Part shown: positions 1 to 19,819 of the stretch, piece by piece
Numbering within the stretch: the stretch's first letter is position 1
Layout of the letters: every line of letters starts with the position of its first letter
DNA from: Minisyncoccia bacterium
Lineage (GTDB): Bacteria; Patescibacteriota; Minisyncoccia; Phycocordibacterales; DATDWN01
DNA length: 64,000 bases
Direction of reading: 5' to 3'
Assembly (NCBI GenBank): GCA_049297675.1
Contig: JBAQUS010000017.1
Coordinates: forward strand, 7,456-71,455
The notes under the pieces: generated by a model
Seen by the model: the letters and a program-made list of their open reading frames with translations, nothing else
What the model was told of the DNA's origin: nothing
The model's database searches: none
Made by a program: the position numbers and the translations under genes

Positions 1-716
1 CTAAACAAATGTGGGAAGAGGCAAATCATTGTGTTGCCTTTGAATATGTTTTGGAGACTTTTCCTTTCGATAGAGAAACAGTTTTCAATACTCACTTGGA
101 AATTCCTTCAATGCTCGCCAAGGAAGCTTTTATAAACAAATACATGGCTCGAATGACAGATATTAGGCTCGATATTTCAACAATAGATGGCAAAAAAGAC
201 TTCCTGCGAAACTTGGTTGCCACAAATATAGTCATGGAAGGCATATGGTTTTACTCAGGCTTTATGGTTGCTCTCTCTTTCAGACAAAGAAACCAGCTCA
301 GAAACTTTGGTTCCATGATAAATTGGGTTTTGCGAGATGAGTCGCTTCATCTGAAGTTTGGTATAAATCTAGTCCATCATATTTTGGAAGAAAACCCTGA
401 GCTCTTGACGGAGGAATTTGCGGCAGAGATTAGAAATATAGTCATAGAAGGGGTTGATTTGGAAACCGCATATAACAAAGATCTCTTTCCAAATGGAATT
501 TTGGGACTTAACGCTGATTATGTAAATCAGTATGTTCAGTATGTTGCGGACAGGAGACTTCAAGAGCTTGGGATGCCGAAATACTACAATGCCACAAATC
601 CAGCAAAGTGGATGTCGACAGCGACAGATGTATTCGAGCTCGTTAACTTTTTTGAATCTCAAAACACAAGCTACGAAGTAGATTCTCACGCAAGCACGAA
701 TAAAAAAGCAGAGTAG
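1..716 (+). CDS. nrdB: ribonucleoside-diphosphate reductase beta (R2) subunit, class I; C-terminal ~235 aa, 5-prime end outside window
   Basis: Reading frame is open to position 1. EGIWFYSGF and the diiron-helix motifs are typical of NrdB. Confidence 0.8.
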   Translation, partial: KQMWEEANHCVAFEYVLETFPFDRETVFNTHLEIPSMLAKEAFINKYMARMTDIRLDISTIDGKKDFLRNLVATNIVMEGIWFYSGFMVALSFRQRNQLRNFGSMINWVLRDESLHLKFGINLVHHILEENPELLTEEFAAEIRNIVIEGVDLETAYNKDLFPNGILGLNADYVNQYVQYVADRRLQELGMPKYYNATNPAKWMSTATDVFELVNFFESQNTSYEVDSHASTNKKAE

Positions 717-732
717 ATACAAGTGTGAAGGT

Positions 733-800
733 GTGAAAGTGGAAAGTGTGAAAGTAAATGCAAGTTCTTCTTACTCAACTTTTCACTTTCACACTTTTAA
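733..800 (+). terminator. hairpin plus T-tract after nrdB
   Basis: GAAAGTGTGAAAGT and ACTTTTCACTTTC form inverted arms, followed by a T-rich run. Confidence 0.45.
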
Positions 801-862
801 CTTCTTCGTATTTCTTTGCTATACTTTAATCATTAATCTTTAATCTTTCTTCATATGACTTG

Positions 863-961
863 TCCCGTTAGAGTTTTACAGATATAAATAAATGATAAGG
901 TTATTAAAGGTGACAAATTATAATTTTTTAGCATAAAACTATATGAAAAACTCTAACGGGA
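863..961. promoter_or_regulatory. inverted-repeat pair TCCCGTTAGAGTTTT (863-877) / AAAACTCTAACGGGA (947-961) bracketing the gap start codon (ATG 943)
   Basis: The two 15-bp arms are perfect reverse complements, 69 bp apart. The second arm encodes codons 2-6 of gap. Confidence 0.6.
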
Positions 962-1965
962 TAAAAGTTGCAATAAACGGTTTTGGAAGAATTGGCCGAG
1001 CCTTTCTTAAAGGTTCGTGGGACAGTGACGAGCTTGAGGTGGTCGCTGTAAACGATCTCGGAAGTGTCGATAACATGGCGTATCTTTTAAAGTACGACAC
1101 TGTTTATAAGACTTGGGACAAGGATGTAAAAGTGGAAGGTGGAAACCTTGTTATCGACGGCAAGACAGTAAAATTTGTCTCAGAAAAAGAACCCACAAAG
1201 CTTCCGTGGAAAGATTTGAATATTGATGTGGTCGTAGAGTCAACGGGTTTATTTACCGATTATGAAAAAGCCTCTGTGCATCTCTCAGCAGGAGCAAAAA
1301 AGGTTGTCATTACTGCTCCATCAAAAGGTGAGAGTGGGGGAGAAACTATTTTGATGGGGGTGAATGAAGAAAAGTTTGGTACTTGCGACGTAACTTCAAA
1401 CGCATCATGTACCACAAACGCAGCGTCCCCACTCATTGCAATTTTGGACGAAAACTTTGGTATTGAAAAAGCCATACTTAATACTGTTCATGGGTACACT
1501 GCCTCGCAGTCACTAGTTGATGGTCCATCTAAAAAAGATTTACGTGAAGGCAGAGCTGCCGCACAAAACATTGTGCCTAGTTCAACAGGTGCAGCTATTG
1601 CAGTGACAAAAGCTTTTACCAAGCTCGATGGTCTTTTTGACGGTATTTCCATTCGAGTGCCGGTAGTAGCTGGGTCTATCGTTGATGTCACACTTATTTC
1701 AAAAAAAACTACAACTGCAGAAGAAGTAAATGAAGTTTTGAGAGAAGCTTCTAAAACTGAAAGATGGAAAAATATTTTCTCCGCAACTGACGAGGAACTC
1801 GTCTCCTCCGACATTTTAGGGAGTCACTTTGGTTCCATCGCTGATCTCAAGATGACTCGTGTCGTTGGCGGAAATCTTGTTAAAGTCATGGCATGGTACG
1901 ATAACGAAGCGGGGTATACGCACACACTCATTGACCATGTCATAAAGACTGGTTCTACAATATAA
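943..1965 (+). CDS. gap: glyceraldehyde-3-phosphate dehydrogenase, type I
   Basis: INGFGRIGR Rossmann motif and the SNASCTTN active-site cysteine region. Confidence 0.95.
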   Translation: MKNSNGIKVAINGFGRIGRAFLKGSWDSDELEVVAVNDLGSVDNMAYLLKYDTVYKTWDKDVKVEGGNLVIDGKTVKFVSEKEPTKLPWKDLNIDVVVESTGLFTDYEKASVHLSAGAKKVVITAPSKGESGGETILMGVNEEKFGTCDVTSNASCTTNAASPLIAILDENFGIEKAILNTVHGYTASQSLVDGPSKKDLREGRAAAQNIVPSSTGAAIAVTKAFTKLDGLFDGISIRVPVVAGSIVDVTLISKKTTTAEEVNEVLREASKTERWKNIFSATDEELVSSDILGSHFGSIADLKMTRVVGGNLVKVMAWYDNEAGYTHTLIDHVIKTGSTI

Positions 1966-9106: not shown

Positions 9107-10474
9107 GTGTATAATATATTTATGATAGTAATGTTCAAACAGTCTTTTCTGTTGTCAATTTTATTTTTATTTTTGGTCTTTCAATTCCAGACGGTTTTTG
9201 CCTTGTCTCCGGAAGAGCAGGAAGCAGTTTGGAGGGAAGAACTGGCTCAAACAGAGGCCGATATTGCCAAGTGGCAGTCAATATTAGATAACACAAAAGC
9301 CAACACCAAATCTTTACAGCAAGAAGCTACTAAACTGAACGCCAAAATAAACCAGGCAAAAGCACTGATAAAAAAGAAAAATATTGCTATTGCTCAGCTT
9401 GAACAAGACATAGCTAAAAAAAATCATAGAATTAAAACTTTGGAGCAGAAAATTGAGGACGGTCATACTTCCTTAGCTCAGATTCTTAGAAAAACAAATG
9501 AAATTGACAGTTTCAGTTTACCCGAAGTTATTTTAGGAAACAAAAATATTTCAGAATTTTTCAGTGATATAGATACATTCCAGTCTGTAAATAGATCACT
9601 TCAAGATTTATTTGTCGAGGTCAGAGCTACAAAAAATCTAACACAAAAAGAGAAAGCTGAATTAGACAAACAAAAAGACAAAGAGGCTGATACGAAAGCT
9701 GCAGCTGAAGTTCAAAAAAAACAAGTGGAGGCTGATGAGAAAGAAAAGCAGTATCTTATTAAGGTAAATAAGACAAATGAGAAGACGTATACAGAGGTTA
9801 TTTCCGAGAGACAAAAAAAAGCTGGTGAGATAAGAGCTAAGCTTTTTAAGCTAGCAGGAGGTAGTAATCCTATTCCATTCGGTGATGCACTAGCTTTTGC
9901 TCAGACGGCATCGCTTAAAACAGGAGTTTCTCCATCTCTACTCCTTGCAGTTTTGACTCAAGAATCAAGTCTAGGGGCAAACGTTGGAAAATGTTATCTA
10001 ACAGATACAAACACAGGCGCCGGGGTCAATACAAGTGGTACAAAAACTTTTCCAAATGTTATGAAACCTACTAGAGATGTATCTCCTTTTTTAGAGATAA
10101 CTAATAAACTGGGTTTTAGTTATCTTAAAACTGTAGTTTCTTGTCCTATTGCAGGGGTGGCAGGATATGGTGGAGCAATGGGTCCAGCACAATTTATTCC
10201 TTCAACATGGAAACTTTTTGAAGACAGATTGCGTAATACTTTGGGTCGTGAACCAAATCCTTGGAATCCAGAGGATGCATTTTCAGCTTCGTCATTTTAC
10301 TTGGGAGACCTGGGAGCAGGAAGTGGCACATATAGCTCTGAAATTCGAGCTGCATGTAAATACTATGGTTCAGGCGGATCCACTTGTTCGTACGGAAGAA
10401 GTGTAATGAATTTAAAAAATAGTATTCAAGCAGATATAGATTATTTAGAAGAATACGGAGTTTCTAGAAGGTAA
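9107..10474 (+). CDS. secreted coiled-coil protein with a C-terminal lytic-transglycosylase-like (SLT) domain
   Basis: Signal peptide, a long coiled coil, and QESS plus GAMGPAQFIPSTW motifs resembling SLT catalytic motifs. Confidence 0.6.
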   Translation: MYNIFMIVMFKQSFLLSILFLFLVFQFQTVFALSPEEQEAVWREELAQTEADIAKWQSILDNTKANTKSLQQEATKLNAKINQAKALIKKKNIAIAQLEQDIAKKNHRIKTLEQKIEDGHTSLAQILRKTNEIDSFSLPEVILGNKNISEFFSDIDTFQSVNRSLQDLFVEVRATKNLTQKEKAELDKQKDKEADTKAAAEVQKKQVEADEKEKQYLIKVNKTNEKTYTEVISERQKKAGEIRAKLFKLAGGSNPIPFGDALAFAQTASLKTGVSPSLLLAVLTQESSLGANVGKCYLTDTNTGAGVNTSGTKTFPNVMKPTRDVSPFLEITNKLGFSYLKTVVSCPIAGVAGYGGAMGPAQFIPSTWKLFEDRLRNTLGREPNPWNPEDAFSASSFYLGDLGAGSGTYSSEIRAACKYYGSGGSTCSYGRSVMNLKNSIQADIDYLEEYGVSRR

Positions 10475-10593: not shown

Positions 10594-13083
10594 ATGATGA
10601 CTACAACACAAAAAATAAAAGAGTTACCTATACCTACGTATTTACTCGTGCTACTTTTGTTTATTATAGGATCAGCCCAAGTTGCCTATGCTGAGGTCTT
10701 GTCTACCGATTTCACAGAAACAACGATTATCTCCAGTGACTTAGATGGACCATCATCAATGGCTTTTACACCGGACGGCAGACTACTCATAAATGAGCTT
10801 GGAGGTCAGATAAGAGTATATAAAAATGGTATTTTACTTTCCGAACCAGCACACACTCTGCAAGTATCAAATGAAGGTGAACAAGGATTAACAGGATTAG
10901 CTATTGACCCAAATTTTGGAACAAATGGATATATTTACATTTACTATACTGCGCTTTTTCCATCACCACACAACCGTCTAAGTCGACTGACGATGTCAGG
11001 AGACACAGTCGTACCAAATAGTGAAAGGATTCTTTTAGATTTGCCTTCTGTGGGAAATCAGAACCATCATGGTGGAGACATACAGTTTGGACTAGACGGA
11101 AAACTATATGTTACTGTTGGTGATCATACTATACGAGCAAATGTTCAGTCTCTGTCGAGTCTTTTTGGAAAAGTTCTGAGGTTGAATTCTGATGGTACTA
11201 TTCCATTAGACAATCCCTTTGTTAACACCCCAGGAGCCCGAGGTGAAATATGGGCATTAGGTTTCCGTAACCCTTTTAAGTTTGCAATAGATCAAGTAAG
11301 TGGCAAGATTCATGTCAATGATGTTGGAGAAAATACTTGGGAAGAAATAAATCTTGTTCAAAGAGGAGCAAACTATGGTTGGCCAACATGTGAGGGTGTT
11401 TGTTCAAATTCAAGTTTTGTAAATCCAATACACTCATATATTCACAATGGTAATGCATCCATAACTGGCGCAACATTTTACAGAGGGTCACAGTTTCCAA
11501 GTGAATATGTGGGTAGATATTTATTTTCGGATTACAACAGCAATTGGGTCAAAGTCCTAAATGATAATGGCACTGCTTCGGATTTTATTATTAATATCCC
11601 AACCCCAATTGATCTTCTGACGGCTCCTGACGGAAGCCTTTATGTATTATCTATTTATCCTGGAAGGCTAACAAAAATTGCATATACAAAACCAAACCAA
11701 AACCATGCTCCGACAGTTACTGCCACAGCTAATCCATCTTCAGGGATATCTCCACTAAATGTTTTATTTAACGCAAATGGTAGTGATTTAGATGGTGATC
11801 TATTATCTTATGTTTGGAATTTTGGTGATGGAACTCAAAGTATCTTCGGTAAGACTCTCTCCCATATTTATAACTTAGCAGGGAATTATACTGCTGTAGT
11901 GACTGTCTCTGATGGGCGGGGTGGAACAGGAACAAGGAACATTAACATTAGTGTTGGAAGTCCACCAACAGGAGTATTTACCACTCCGCTCTCCGGAGTA
12001 AAATATAATGCGGGTGATATTATTTCCTATTCAGGTACTGCAACCGACCTTCAAGATGGTACATTAGGTGCATCAGCATTTAGTTGGACAATAATTTTTC
12101 ACCACGGCACACACATTCATCCTTTTCTTGGACCAGTCAGTGGAGTTAGAAGCGGTAGTTTTCTAATCCCACAAACTGGCGAAGTTTCTTCAGATGTTTA
12201 TTATGAGATTCAATTAAAAGTAAAAGACTCATCTGGACTAGAACATATCACTAGTCGAAATATTTTTCCTAACACAGTAAATGTGACCATTGCCACTAAC
12301 CCTACTGGTCTTTCTGTTAATCTAGATAGTCAGCCAAAAATTACTCCATATTCTTTTGTTGGTGTGACTGGATTTACAAGGGATGTTGGTTTAATTTCTC
12401 CGCAGACCCTAAATGCCAAGAAATATGAATTTATATCTTGGTCCGACAATGGCCTGCAAAATCATTCCATAAGAACACCCAACGTAAACACTACATACAC
12501 CGCAAACTTTAGAGAAGTGGTTGTCACACCACCTCCACCACCCCCACCACCATATTCACAAGCATCTTACGTAACACCACCCCCACCTCCACCTTACTCC
12601 CAATCATCCTATTATTCACAAGCATCTTACGTAACACCACCTCCTCCACCAACATATTCACAGGCGTCATACTACTCTCAATCATCATACGTCACACCTC
12701 CTCCACCGTCATATTCTCAATCATCATATATGACGCCTCCTATTCCACCTGCTGGAGGAACATCTTCATGGCAAACCCCTACTCCATGGACCACTACTCC
12801 ACAGACACAAAATTCAGGATGGTCACAACCATCGTCTTGGAATACTACACCTGTAGCTTCAGCCTCATCATGGTCACAGGAGACGACATGGCCACAACCT
12901 GTTGGTTGGACAACTACACCAGTAGGATCTGTAAGTACATGGTCACAGCCAACTGCTTGGAGTAGTTCTCCTGTTGGTGCATCGTCCTCTTGGGCATCAC
13001 CTACTTTATGGACTGTAAATACAGGTTCGACACAAAGTTCTTCTTGGCAGACAAGTGAGTGGGCTGCTCCTACCCCATGGTAA
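10594..13083 (+). CDS. cell-surface protein: signal peptide, glucose/sorbosone-dehydrogenase-like beta-propeller, PKD domain, Pro-rich and Trp-periodic C-terminal repeats
   Basis: GSDH-like motifs (GLTGLAIDPNF, NGYIYIYYT), a PKD-like WNFGDGT, then low-complexity repeats. Confidence 0.7.
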   Translation: MMTTTQKIKELPIPTYLLVLLLFIIGSAQVAYAEVLSTDFTETTIISSDLDGPSSMAFTPDGRLLINELGGQIRVYKNGILLSEPAHTLQVSNEGEQGLTGLAIDPNFGTNGYIYIYYTALFPSPHNRLSRLTMSGDTVVPNSERILLDLPSVGNQNHHGGDIQFGLDGKLYVTVGDHTIRANVQSLSSLFGKVLRLNSDGTIPLDNPFVNTPGARGEIWALGFRNPFKFAIDQVSGKIHVNDVGENTWEEINLVQRGANYGWPTCEGVCSNSSFVNPIHSYIHNGNASITGATFYRGSQFPSEYVGRYLFSDYNSNWVKVLNDNGTASDFIINIPTPIDLLTAPDGSLYVLSIYPGRLTKIAYTKPNQNHAPTVTATANPSSGISPLNVLFNANGSDLDGDLLSYVWNFGDGTQSIFGKTLSHIYNLAGNYTAVVTVSDGRGGTGTRNINISVGSPPTGVFTTPLSGVKYNAGDIISYSGTATDLQDGTLGASAFSWTIIFHHGTHIHPFLGPVSGVRSGSFLIPQTGEVSSDVYYEIQLKVKDSSGLEHITSRNIFPNTVNVTIATNPTGLSVNLDSQPKITPYSFVGVTGFTRDVGLISPQTLNAKKYEFISWSDNGLQNHSIRTPNVNTTYTANFREVVVTPPPPPPPPYSQASYVTPPPPPPYSQSSYYSQASYVTPPPPPTYSQASYYSQSSYVTPPPPSYSQSSYMTPPIPPAGGTSSWQTPTPWTTTPQTQNSGWSQPSSWNTTPVASASSWSQETTWPQPVGWTTTPVGSVSTWSQPTAWSSSPVGASSSWASPTLWTVNTGSTQSSSWQTSEWAAPTPW
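12529..13080 (+). repeat. coding tandem repeats: (YSQ[AS]SYVTPPPPP)n followed by (S[ST]W..PT.W)n
   Basis: Includes an exact 29-bp DNA duplication, TATTCACAAGCATCTTACGTAACACCACC, at ~12555 and ~12616. Confidence 0.8.
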
Positions 13084-17897: not shown

Positions 17898-18581
17898 CTA
17901 GTTATTCTCTGTACTCGTTGCAGTTTTAGCTTTGAGTGTTTTAAGTTCTGGGATCATTTTCTCCAAATCTTCGACACTTTTGAATCCATAGTAAACTTTA
18001 TCTTTTATTATGAGAGCTGGAAGTTCATTTTTTATTTTATTAACAGAGATTAAGGTTTTAACAGCCGAAACGTCGATATTATAATCAAAGGAATAAACTC
18101 TTAAATCCGGATAATTTTCACGAAGATGAGTTAGGACATAACCTTCTTTTTCACAATCTGGACACTTATTGTCAGTGGAATAGAAATAAATAACAGAGAA
18201 AGGCACTCTCTTACACTTTTCGTTTACTTTATTCATAAGCAAGTAATCCTTTATTTCTAAGAGTGAATAGTATTTTTTTAAAGTTATAACCTCAGGATCA
18301 TCGAATCCTCTCTGATTTTCGGTGTAGGAAAGTTTATCCTCCAACTCCCCGAGTTCCTCTGAAAGTGAACCAGTTCCGAGGTCCTTGCATGAGTACTCTT
18401 CAAGTAGGGAAAACTGGGTTTCTGAAGAGAGAATATCGATAGCTATTTTGTCCTGAATATTTCTGATCTCTTCTAGTTTTTTGTTTGCGAAAAAATTAGA
18501 TAGATAAATTGCCGAGGCAAATATAAGTGCTGTAATAAGAAAAGAGAATACATACTTTTGCCAGTTTATCTCGTTTTTCAT
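17898..18581 (-). CDS. membrane-anchored thioredoxin-fold protein with a CPDC motif (putative thiol-disulfide oxidoreductase)
   Basis: N-terminal TM segment and a CxxC (CPDC) motif. Overlaps the upstream GT2 gene by 4 nt. Confidence 0.5.
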   Translation of the reverse strand: MKNEINWQKYVFSFLITALIFASAIYLSNFFANKKLEEIRNIQDKIAIDILSSETQFSLLEEYSCKDLGTGSLSEELGELEDKLSYTENQRGFDDPEVITLKKYYSLLEIKDYLLMNKVNEKCKRVPFSVIYFYSTDNKCPDCEKEGYVLTHLRENYPDLRVYSFDYNIDVSAVKTLISVNKIKNELPALIIKDKVYYGFKSVEDLEKMIPELKTLKAKTATSTENN

Positions 18582-19819
18582 CTCCAGTTAGTTTTTACAT
18601 CGAATACTACGTTAAATAGAGCTTTACCAATCCACAGTGGGGCTATAAACATATACAAGCTTAGGTAGTAAACTACATCCATACCAATATCCAGTTTACC
18701 CTCTGACATTCTTTTCGACATAAGTATCATTGTAATTGTGCCAAGTATAACTACTATTCCAACAAGAGCCATAAACTGTGTGTTTATGTAAAACCAATCG
18801 AAACTAAGCCCACTAAAGTTGAATCCAATAGTTTGGATTCTAACAAATTCACTTAAAATATTGTTTATTATGTTAACAACAGAAACAATCGAAACAAAAA
18901 GTACAGACACTACAGAAAGTGCCGCCATAGGTAAAATAATCATTCCAACGTTACCATATTCCTTCTTAAAAAACATATCTCTGTAATCACTTGCGTTTTT
19001 TATAAATCCGTATGACCACCTAACTCTTTGTTTTAGAAGTTTCCTAATGGTTTTCGGCGGGACAGTATAAACGTAAGCATTGTGAGCATGGACAATTTTC
19101 ATTCCATTTTTTTGCATACGGAGTGCAACTTCAATATCTTCTGTGTTGTGGGCATGTTTATATCCACCAAGTTTGTCGAAAACTTCTCTTCTAAATATCG
19201 AGAATGGTCCAGGAGTGATATAGATAGCTTGCATATAGTGGAACATTTTTCTGGTGAATATTCCAAACCCGTATTCAACCTTTTGTAATAATTGCAAGAA
19301 GTTCTTTGGTTCCCAAAGTTTTATTGATGGGGCAACAGCCATAACCTGCTTATCTTCAAAATAAGTAACAATCTTTTTAAGAGCATCACCCGAGACATAT
19401 GAATCAGCGTCTAAGCATCCAACCAAGTCACTCTGGCTTTTTGATAAACCTAGATTCAGTGCGGTGTATTTTCCACCATTTTCTTTTGTGTAAAGTTCAA
19501 CCTGCGTATTACTACTGAACTTCTGGACGACCCCCCATGTATTATCGGTTGATCCATCATCAATCACCATTATTTTTAATTTATTCTTAGGGTAATCGAG
19601 TTTCAGAAGAGAGTTGATGGTTTTCGATACAGTTGTTTCTTCGTTCCAGCATGGGACTATGATAGAAACTGTAGGATACTTTGCTAGCACTCTTGAGGAT
19701 AACCTCTCCTCTTCTTTTATGTTTAGTCTGTTTTCAAAATATGTGATAAGCAAAAAAACCTCAAAGTTAAGAGACAAGAATAAAAAAGCGTATGTGATTA
19801 TATTTGTGATGTCTGCCAT
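18578..19819 (-). CDS. processive family-2 glycosyltransferase (NodC / cellulose-synthase-like)
   Basis: D, DxD and QRVRW (QxxRW) motifs, plus C-terminal TM helices. Confidence 0.8.
   Translation of the reverse strand: MADITNIITYAFLFLSLNFEVFLLITYFENRLNIKEEERLSSRVLAKYPTVSIIVPCWNEETTVSKTINSLLKLDYPKNKLKIMVIDDGSTDNTWGVVQKFSSNTQVELYTKENGGKYTALNLGLSKSQSDLVGCLDADSYVSGDALKKIVTYFEDKQVMAVAPSIKLWEPKNFLQLLQKVEYGFGIFTRKMFHYMQAIYITPGPFSIFRREVFDKLGGYKHAHNTEDIEVALRMQKNGMKIVHAHNAYVYTVPPKTIRKLLKQRVRWSYGFIKNASDYRDMFFKKEYGNVGMIILPMAALSVVSVLFVSIVSVVNIINNILSEFVRIQTIGFNFSGLSFDWFYINTQFMALVGIVVILGTITMILMSKRMSEGKLDIGMDVVYYLSLYMFIAPLWIGKALFNVVFDVKTNWR

Follow-up and report, generated by a model that had tools for sequence, protein, structure and literature searches.

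We analyzed a 64,000-nucleotide (nt) stretch of contig JBAQUS010000017.1 from a Minisyncoccia bacterium (hereafter the window), in which an open reading frame (ORF) at 10594..13083 on the plus strand encodes an 829-amino-acid (aa) protein. The window is otherwise occupied by housekeeping genes, encoding DnaE, GyrB, SMC, RNase R, and ribosomal proteins. Minisyncoccia is a class within the phylum Minisyncoccota, and Minisyncoccia-type bacteria are placed within the Candidate Phyla Radiation (CPR)/Patescibacteria in a recent preprint (Voutsinos et al. 2026). From the N-terminus, the protein comprises a signal peptide, a GSDH propeller, a PKD domain, two immunoglobulin (Ig)-like domains, a spacer rich in Pro and Tyr, and a tail in which Trp recurs periodically. 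We predict that the gene product is a Sec-exported, modular extracellular enzyme, and its Trp-periodic tail is our main subject here.

The tail covers aa 726-829 (104 aa; 12769..13080, plus strand) and consists of approximately six units of 17 aa that together hold 14 Trp residues. It closes with the heptapeptide WAAPTPW, followed by the stop codon (13060..13083, plus strand). Trp accounts for 13.5% of the tail, compared with 1.1% of aa 1-640, and the successive Trp gaps are 6, 11, 6, 11, 6, 6, 11, 6, 11, 6, 12, 5, and 6. Of the 13 gaps, 11 are thus either 6 or 11; when the tail was shuffled 200,000 times, no shuffle reached this number, and the best had 8 such gaps. The initial annotation, made from the sequence without database searches, had described a region of about 110 aa, rich in Ser, Thr, and Pro, in which Trp recurs every 8-12 residues. 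The region and its composition are real, but the spacing alternates between 6 and 11. From 19 units of three orthologous proteins, we obtained the consensus T-x-T-P-x-G-x-x-S-S-W-[APS]-[QA]-P-T-x-W, each unit carrying one W-x5-W pair. In the logo of these 19 units, Trp never varied, and the Pro-Thr pair that follows the first Trp hardly did.

The two orthologues of the query, P0001 (66% identity) and P0002 (62%), both carry the Trp tail, and the gene order L25, SLT-domain protein, dehydrogenase gene, L31, and RF1 is common to all three genomes. The query tail is homologous to those of P0001 and P0002, with scores of 118-135 bits without bias correction. The three tails contain 14, 11, and 15 Trp residues in the same 6/11 alternation, and their WAAPTPW ends are identical. 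A three-way alignment gave 11 all-Trp columns and no Trp substitution, the differences being gains or losses of whole units. We took the tail to be defined by at least five W-x5-W-x10 units in a matrix of Ser, Thr, Pro, and Gln, ending in WAAPTPW-COOH and placed after GSDH-PKD-Ig-Ig, and all three proteins fit this definition.

We also compared the divergence of the tail with that of the folded domains. Synonymous sites were saturated (proportion of synonymous differences, pS, 0.63-0.79), so the ratio of nonsynonymous to synonymous substitution rates (dN/dS) was dropped and the proportion of nonsynonymous differences (pN) was used on its own. The pN of the tail was 0.23-0.37, similar to that of the PKD domain (0.29-0.34) and the Ig-like domains (0.25-0.27), and the tail units within the query were only about 55% identical at the DNA level. 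A tail that diverges like the folded domains, and whose units differ this much in DNA, argues that the Trp array is probably old and maintained by selection, and not a product of recent slippage.

The distribution of the tail was narrow. A profile of the tail, searched against 1.84 billion representatives, found the orthologue cluster P0001 (86.6 bits, E = 1e-19) and no further carrier, the other matches being just three unrelated repeat proteins. The tail was likewise absent elsewhere in the window and in L001 and L002. Protein searches with the tail only and with the three-tail alignment returned zero matches and missed even the known orthologues, owing to the bias correction of HMMER, a filter that is harsh on the tail composition and removes 70-100 bits from tail-tail matches. 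Scanning the DNA of a genome collection for the Trp periodicity gave at least 120 matches, those listed being mostly off-frame GC-rich tandem repeats. A metagenome scan for WAAPTPW plus stop was swamped by GC-rich chance matches, with no new orthologue among the matches listed. At the sensitivity available, the tail thus seems confined to one orthologue group, and this speaks against a general signal by which many substrates would be sorted or anchored. With a single carrier protein found, it is apparently no all-purpose module that these genomes use for sorting or anchoring. In the literature, we found nothing relevant on Trp-rich or periodic tails in CPR or in bacterial surface proteins.

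The sole match listed with a credible reading frame, L079, was rejected as a tail carrier because it is an unrelated Pro/Gly/Gln-rich actinobacterial membrane protein. L079 occupies 1-1299 (plus strand) of contig PKYM01000091.1 from an Actinomycetota metagenome-assembled genome (MAG), has a GC content at third codon positions (GC3) of 0.88, and is hydrophobic and membrane-type. Its repeats, PPPGW...GPQGW, have W-x5-W-x10 geometry and differ from the tail in composition and context; they may be a convergent analogue of it.

AlphaFold2 predicted no secondary structure from aa ~646 on, and the predicted local distance difference test (pLDDT) score was 30-36 in the tail, over which only three sequences were aligned. 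Spacer and tail together (aa 640-829) contain one Arg (aa 640) and three Glu, whereas Lys, Asp, and His are absent. Summed over the tail, the Wimley-White interfacial free energy comes to -2.5 kcal/mol, which is about neutral, and the protein terminates on Trp with no hydrophobic or basic anchor beyond it. In this model, the tail would be an extended, polar, uncharged chain along which paired indole rings stand out at regular distances.

No Pfam or NCBIfam model matched the tail, and no Pfam family matched aa 640-829 at E ≤ 0.01. The wall-binding repeat families CW_binding_1, WxL, GW/SH3_8, SLH, LysM, and ChW gave no match in the full protein at E ≤ 1, and dockerin type I (PF00404) was absent from the query in Pfam. 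Sorting signals of the sortase LPXTG, PEP-CTERM, GlyGly-CTERM, and PGF-CTERM types were also lacking: in 19-residue windows, the hydropathy of aa 640-829 peaks at 0.18, and this region has no Lys.

Immediately upstream of the tail lies the spacer (aa 644-725; 12523..12768, plus strand), in which five (V/M)TPP(P/I)P.. runs alternate with six YSQ[A/S]SY blocks, these hexapeptides being located at aa 654-712. Tandem Repeats Finder (TRF) detected three tandem 60-nt units coding for the Tyr/Pro blocks (12553..12732, plus strand), whose copies are mutually 62-80% identical. Within them, 12553-12581 and 12613-12641 form an exact 29-nt duplicate, compared with a longest exact repeat of 14 nt in 200 shuffles of the gene. 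The (YSQxSYVTPPPPP)n repeats and the exact 29-bp duplication reported in the initial annotation were therefore confirmed.

The spacer has a pLDDT of 44-65 and no predicted secondary structure (AlphaFold2). Its length is conserved in the three orthologues (86, 78, and 71 aa), whereas its Pro content is 31% in the query and 51-55% in the other two. The spacers of P0001 and P0002 are plain Pro/Thr/Ser/Ala linkers without Tyr and 62% identical to each other. The query spacer, with 12 Tyr residues, is only 33-44% identical to them. Pro-rich, unstructured, kept in length, and fast-evolving in sequence, it is an interdomain linker of the Pro/Thr type. It does not qualify as an extensin-like repeat, as it contains neither SPPPP nor YxY and has no Pfam match.

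As the Tyr blocks are missing in both syntenic orthologues, they are specific to this lineage, and the Tyr/Pro blocks are apparently a lineage-specific remodelling of the linker. Codon differences across the six Tyr blocks comprised 45 synonymous and 9 non-synonymous changes, all nine of the latter at the A/S position. Therefore, the Tyr-block peptide was conserved while its DNA drifted, and this pattern indicates probable selection for the YSQxSY peptide. The 29-bp duplication had previously been read as a sign of recent expansion; this holds insofar as the blocks are lineage-specific and one pair of copies is identical in DNA, but the other copies have drifted in the manner just described. 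No repeat-length polymorphism was seen across seven contigs carrying the gene. A frameshift origin of the Tyr blocks from an ancestral Pro/Thr linker was rejected, as alternative frames of the query and orthologue linkers never interconvert.

At the other end of the protein, the signal peptide (aa 1-33; 10594..10692, plus strand) has a Lys in its n-region, the hydrophobic stretch YLLVLLLFIIG, and then A-Y-A/E (the slash marks the cleavage site, which was read by eye). The N-terminus is the sole hydrophobic segment of the 829-aa protein (best 19-residue Kyte-Doolittle windows, KD19, at aa 12-36), and equivalent AxA-type N-termini are present in both orthologues. The hydrophobic segment together with A-Y-A/E means that the protein is in all likelihood exported, in agreement with the exported location given in the initial annotation.

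The head is a six-bladed propeller of the GSDH type, that is, a pyrroloquinoline quinone (PQQ)-type aldose sugar dehydrogenase (aa 50-353; 10741..11652, plus strand). It matched Pfam PF07995 with 203.1 bits against a cut-off of 25 (E = 9e-60), from profile position 1 to 323 of 332. Three relatives in the Protein Data Bank (PDB), 2ISM, 3A9G, and 2G8S, aligned to the propeller at E = 1e-37 to 1e-40. NHHGG of the head aligned with the HxGG motif (LHSGG, IHNGG, and NHFGG in 2ISM, 3A9G, and 2G8S), and GFRNP aligned with the (H/I)RNP motif, represented by GHRNP and GIRNP among the same structures. We take the His of HxGG to be catalytic and Arg-Asn-Pro to contact PQQ, by analogy with soluble glucose dehydrogenase (sGDH) and aldose sugar dehydrogenase (Asd). 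With a match to the whole propeller profile and both motifs conserved, the head belongs to the GSDH family. It looks catalytically intact, and binding of PQQ and metal and oxidation of a sugar are predicted. The propeller has a single Cys pair, C266/C270.

According to Voutsinos et al. (2026 preprint), six-bladed PQQ propellers occur in 247 CPR genomes, each with 1-2 Cys pairs; none of these genomes has PQQ synthesis genes, and the propellers were proposed to act on surface sugars of the host or prey. The protein described here likewise has one Cys pair and comes from the group reported there to lack PQQ synthesis; that preprint mentions no tail of the Trp type. The solved PQQ aldose dehydrogenases (E. 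coli YliI/Asd, 2G8S; T. thermophilus, 2ISM; P. aerophilum, 3A9G) share the head and its aligned HxGG and RNP motifs. However, they are single-domain periplasmic enzymes, whereas this protein adds the PKD domain, two Ig-like domains, the Pro/Tyr spacer, and the Trp tail. Given its likeness to the solved enzymes and to the CPR propellers of the preprint, the head is therefore an already-known kind of protein, and so is the overall architecture.

The PKD domain (aa 370-453; 11701..11952, plus strand) matched Pfam PKD_4 with 65.5 bits (cut-off 27, E = 4.6e-18) and PKD with 48.2 bits (cut-off 23.5, E = 1.1e-12), which places it in the family, and the region also matched the structures of collagenase PKD domains. 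Both the GSDH beta-propeller and the PKD domain, named beforehand from the sequence, were thus borne out by Pfam. The repeats had been thought to follow the PKD domain directly; in fact, about 190 aa of folded Ig-like domains lie between them. These two tandem beta-sandwich domains (aa 456-643; 11959..12522, plus strand) were recognized with AlphaFold2 and Foldseek. The pair (~190 aa, aa 456-645) was predicted to be all-beta with a pLDDT of about 95, has no Pfam match, and returned only generic tandem Ig-like matches in Foldseek (pilins, adhesins, S-layer proteins, and SGBP-B). It is present in 104 of the 120 best-listed homologues.

The first Ig-like domain contains a His cluster, FHHxTHxHPF, which in the query reads FHHGTHIH (12100-12123 of the window, aa 503-510). 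Among 27 aligned homologues, H504, H507, and H509 are invariant and H503 is nearly so, and W498 and D485 are conserved as well. This conservation suggests that the cluster may bind a metal at a conserved site, which might play a part in passing electrons on from the PQQ head.

Searching with the full-length protein gave 1,638 matches, in which aa 1-645 form a conserved core at 42-66% identity and about 78% query coverage; no listed match spans more than 79% of the query. The 90% cluster of the query is represented by P0125, a 245-aa fragment whose last seven residues differ from those of the query, and this probably explains why the query is absent from its own matches. The GSDH-PKD-Ig-Ig core is widespread, occurring in Minisyncoccia, Nitrosopumilaceae, Acidobacteria, and others. 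These proteins share the core, but only the query and its two orthologues end in a Trp-periodic unstructured tail.

The best-listed relatives mostly have long, variable C-terminal extensions after the Ig pair. One relative from Minisyncoccia, P0005, carries Dockerin_1 (PF00404, 33 bits) at aa 639-684, directly after the Ig pair and in a position equivalent to the query repeats. P0005 therefore ends in a folded module, unlike the Trp-tail proteins. For other relatives, fn3, Laminin_G_3, PA14, GLEYA, and CBM9-type accessions are listed somewhere in the protein. The variable extensions and the dockerin of P0005 point to the position after the Ig pair as a probable slot for interchangeable targeting or attachment modules. 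Separately, the dockerin of P0005 implies surface assembly of the cohesin-dockerin type in the CPR group.

Taking into account the conservation of the tail and the position that it occupies, we tentatively propose, at somewhat less than even odds, that the Trp tail is a non-covalent tether that uses many weak aromatic contacts to hold the enzyme on a polymeric surface, which may be the envelope of the cell itself or the glycans of a host. The initial annotation had suggested a cell-wall or partner-cell adhesion module; the Trp region is compatible with this and, in view of the conserved tail and the dockerin slot, it is our best guess, adhesion itself being putative. The regularly spaced indoles would act as repeated weak "stickers" that stack on sugar rings or enter hydrophobic pockets of the target, whether this is the wall or S-layer of the bacterium itself or glycans on the envelope of a host cell, and the 11-15 Trp copies would provide avidity. 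The polyproline-rich spacer may serve as a stiff stand-off that keeps the catalytic head away from the surface. Tandem duplication would have remodelled the spacer of this lineage into YSQxSY/TPPPP units, now conserved as peptide, and the 12 added Tyr could offer further aromatic contacts or sites for glycosylation or cross-linking. We also considered a bolder version, in which the W-x5-W-x10 tail is a new type of disordered, Trp-based multivalent adhesion module with which a Minisyncoccia episymbiont pins a cofactor-scavenging sugar oxidase to the envelope glycans of its host, with repeat number and Tyr spacer tuning reach and affinity. Such a module would be a bacterial extracellular counterpart to the eukaryotic aromatic sticker-spacer regions; we regard this version as a long shot.

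The idea of tethering has parallels among known repeats. The Gram-positive wall-binding repeats (choline-binding CW_binding_1 of ~20 aa, WxL, and GW modules) are likewise C-terminal and tandem with conserved Trp or other aromatic residues, and they attach non-covalently by multivalency, the role proposed here for the Trp tail. However, they fold (into a beta-hairpin solenoid or SH3-like structure), have a composition dominated by Gly, Lys, Asp, and Tyr, and sit on many proteins per genome, whereas the Trp tail matches none of their profiles, is predicted to be unstructured, is uncharged, and occurs on one protein only. Eukaryotic sticker-spacer regions, such as the FG repeats of nucleoporins and the Argonaute-binding Trp "hooks" of GW182, place aromatic residues regularly in polar, low-charge disorder and bind weakly and multivalently. 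These regions are the closest mechanistic analogy to the Trp tail, but they are eukaryotic and intracellular, have known partners, and show no homology to it. The spacer resembles the Pro/Thr linkers of glycoside hydrolases in lying between folded domains and a terminal module, in its Pro content (31-55%), and in evolving by slippage. Like extensins, it combines polyproline runs with regularly placed Tyr, but instead of Ser-Pro4 and YxY motifs it has (V/M)T-Pro4-8 and YSQ[AS]SY.

How the ultra-small CPR bacteria and Minisyncoccota attach to and act on partner cells is largely obscure beyond type IV pili, and a stalked oxidase with a Trp-repeat tail, dependent on a cofactor that the cell does not make, is a concrete candidate for a surface-tethered host-interaction factor. 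If the proposal is true, an unstructured type with periodic aromatic residues would join the bacterial surface-attachment modules, the known ones of which are all folded.

Several points weigh against tethering. The tail is present in three lineages only, so the conservation statistics rest on few comparisons, and the saturated synonymous sites leave no valid dN/dS for it. Alignment of low-complexity repeats inflates identity, and the low pLDDT of the tail may partly reflect an alignment only three sequences deep. Established wall-binding repeats sit on many proteins per genome, whereas no other tail carrier was found among the 1.84 billion representatives. An inert linker with heavy O-glycosylation could just as well have the composition of the tail. 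We regard the Trp tail as a previously undescribed variant, of narrow distribution, among surface-attachment appendages, its attachment role being putative.

We then weighed the inert linker itself. Here, the C-terminal 190 aa would be a linker or "bristle", probably O-glycosylated, and the Trp period would merely be left over from an old tandem duplication, retained because it aids solubility or compaction. A region rich in Ser, Thr, and Pro, uncharged and predicted to be disordered, with no Pfam or NCBIfam match, no other carrier protein, and a unit number that differs between orthologues, is what such a linker should look like. Yet linkers join two modules, and this protein stops at an invariant WAAPTPW. 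Not one Trp is substituted across the orthologues though the units are only about 55% identical in DNA, the adjoining true linker diverges much faster in sequence, and 13.5% Trp is unusual for an inert spacer. We therefore consider an inert linker unlikely.

The tail might also be a carbohydrate-binding appendage that feeds polysaccharide to the dehydrogenase, in the style of a disordered carbohydrate-binding module (CBM) or a glycosylated cellulase linker, with no anchoring to a cell. The sugar dehydrogenase head with its catalytic motifs intact is in line with this, CBMs are established to stack sugars through aromatic side chains, and the CBM9, PA14, GLEYA, and Laminin_G_3-type accessions listed for homologues, somewhere in the protein, would fit too. 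But AlphaFold2 predicted no fold that could form a planar aromatic platform, and the tail has no similarity to any CBM family. Moreover, three Ig-type domains and a stiff spacer of ~80 aa part the tail from the active site, an arrangement that suits tethering better. Substrate capture is accordingly rather improbable in our judgement.

Alternatively, the tail could anchor the protein peripherally at a membrane interface, its 14 Trp lying among the lipid head groups of a membrane, either that of the cell or that of the host, without a transmembrane helix. Trp is established as the residue with the strongest interfacial preference on the Wimley-White scale, the protein has no other C-terminal anchor, and an outer membrane is presumed to be absent from these bacteria (Voutsinos et al. 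2026 preprint). However, the polar matrix cancels the contribution of Trp, leaving a total of only -2.5 kcal/mol, basic residues for anionic lipids are lacking, no amphipathic helix is predicted, and a wall would separate the membrane from the exported 829-aa protein. A membrane anchor is therefore very unlikely.

There is scarcely any chance, in our estimate, that a dedicated machinery reads the tail, or its WAAPTPW end, as a C-terminal signal for sorting or processing. The final seven residues are invariant in the three orthologues, and ending on an aromatic residue is reminiscent of the beta-signal in outer-membrane proteins. On the other hand, this C-terminus has neither the hydrophobic helix nor the basic tail seen in signals of the sortase, exosortase, and rhombosortase types. 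Such signals serve many substrates, whereas the profile search of 1.84 billion representatives found the tail on one orthologue group, and no further carrier turned up in the window, L001, or L002.

Misassembly is a well-known hazard in low-complexity tandem repeats, but an assembly or annotation artefact, with repeats collapsed or expanded or read in a wrong frame, is next to impossible: the identical 829-aa protein, named "PQQ-dependent sugar dehydrogenase [Minisyncoccia bacterium]" at NCBI, is recorded under four NCBI MAG accessions and on seven contigs, the Logan assembly L243, produced independently, agrees with the window at 100% identity across 5,227 nt with the repeats included, the repeat copies are just 62-80% identical and so easily assembled, and the frame stays open up to the same C-terminus as in the orthologues. 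The collapse or variation of the repeats through assembly error, against which the initial annotation had cautioned, was thus not seen in the seven contigs carrying the identical protein or in L243.

The neighborhood of the gene was also inspected. The upstream gene (9107-10474, plus strand) encodes a protein with a hydrophobic N-terminal segment and a weak match to lytic transglycosylases of the SLT_2/MltB-like type, while its N-terminal half gave weak matches of the coiled-coil type only (SMC and EnvC). In each of the three genomes, this SLT gene and the dehydrogenase gene stand side by side, flanked by rplY (L25) and rpmE (L31). It is possible that the two proteins are functionally linked, for example in wall remodelling at a contact site. 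A scan for promoters and terminators found sites no commoner than in shuffled sequences. Farther downstream, a family-2 glycosyltransferase is encoded at 18578-19819 on the minus strand, which could be relevant to the synthesis of envelope glycans or to protein glycosylation.

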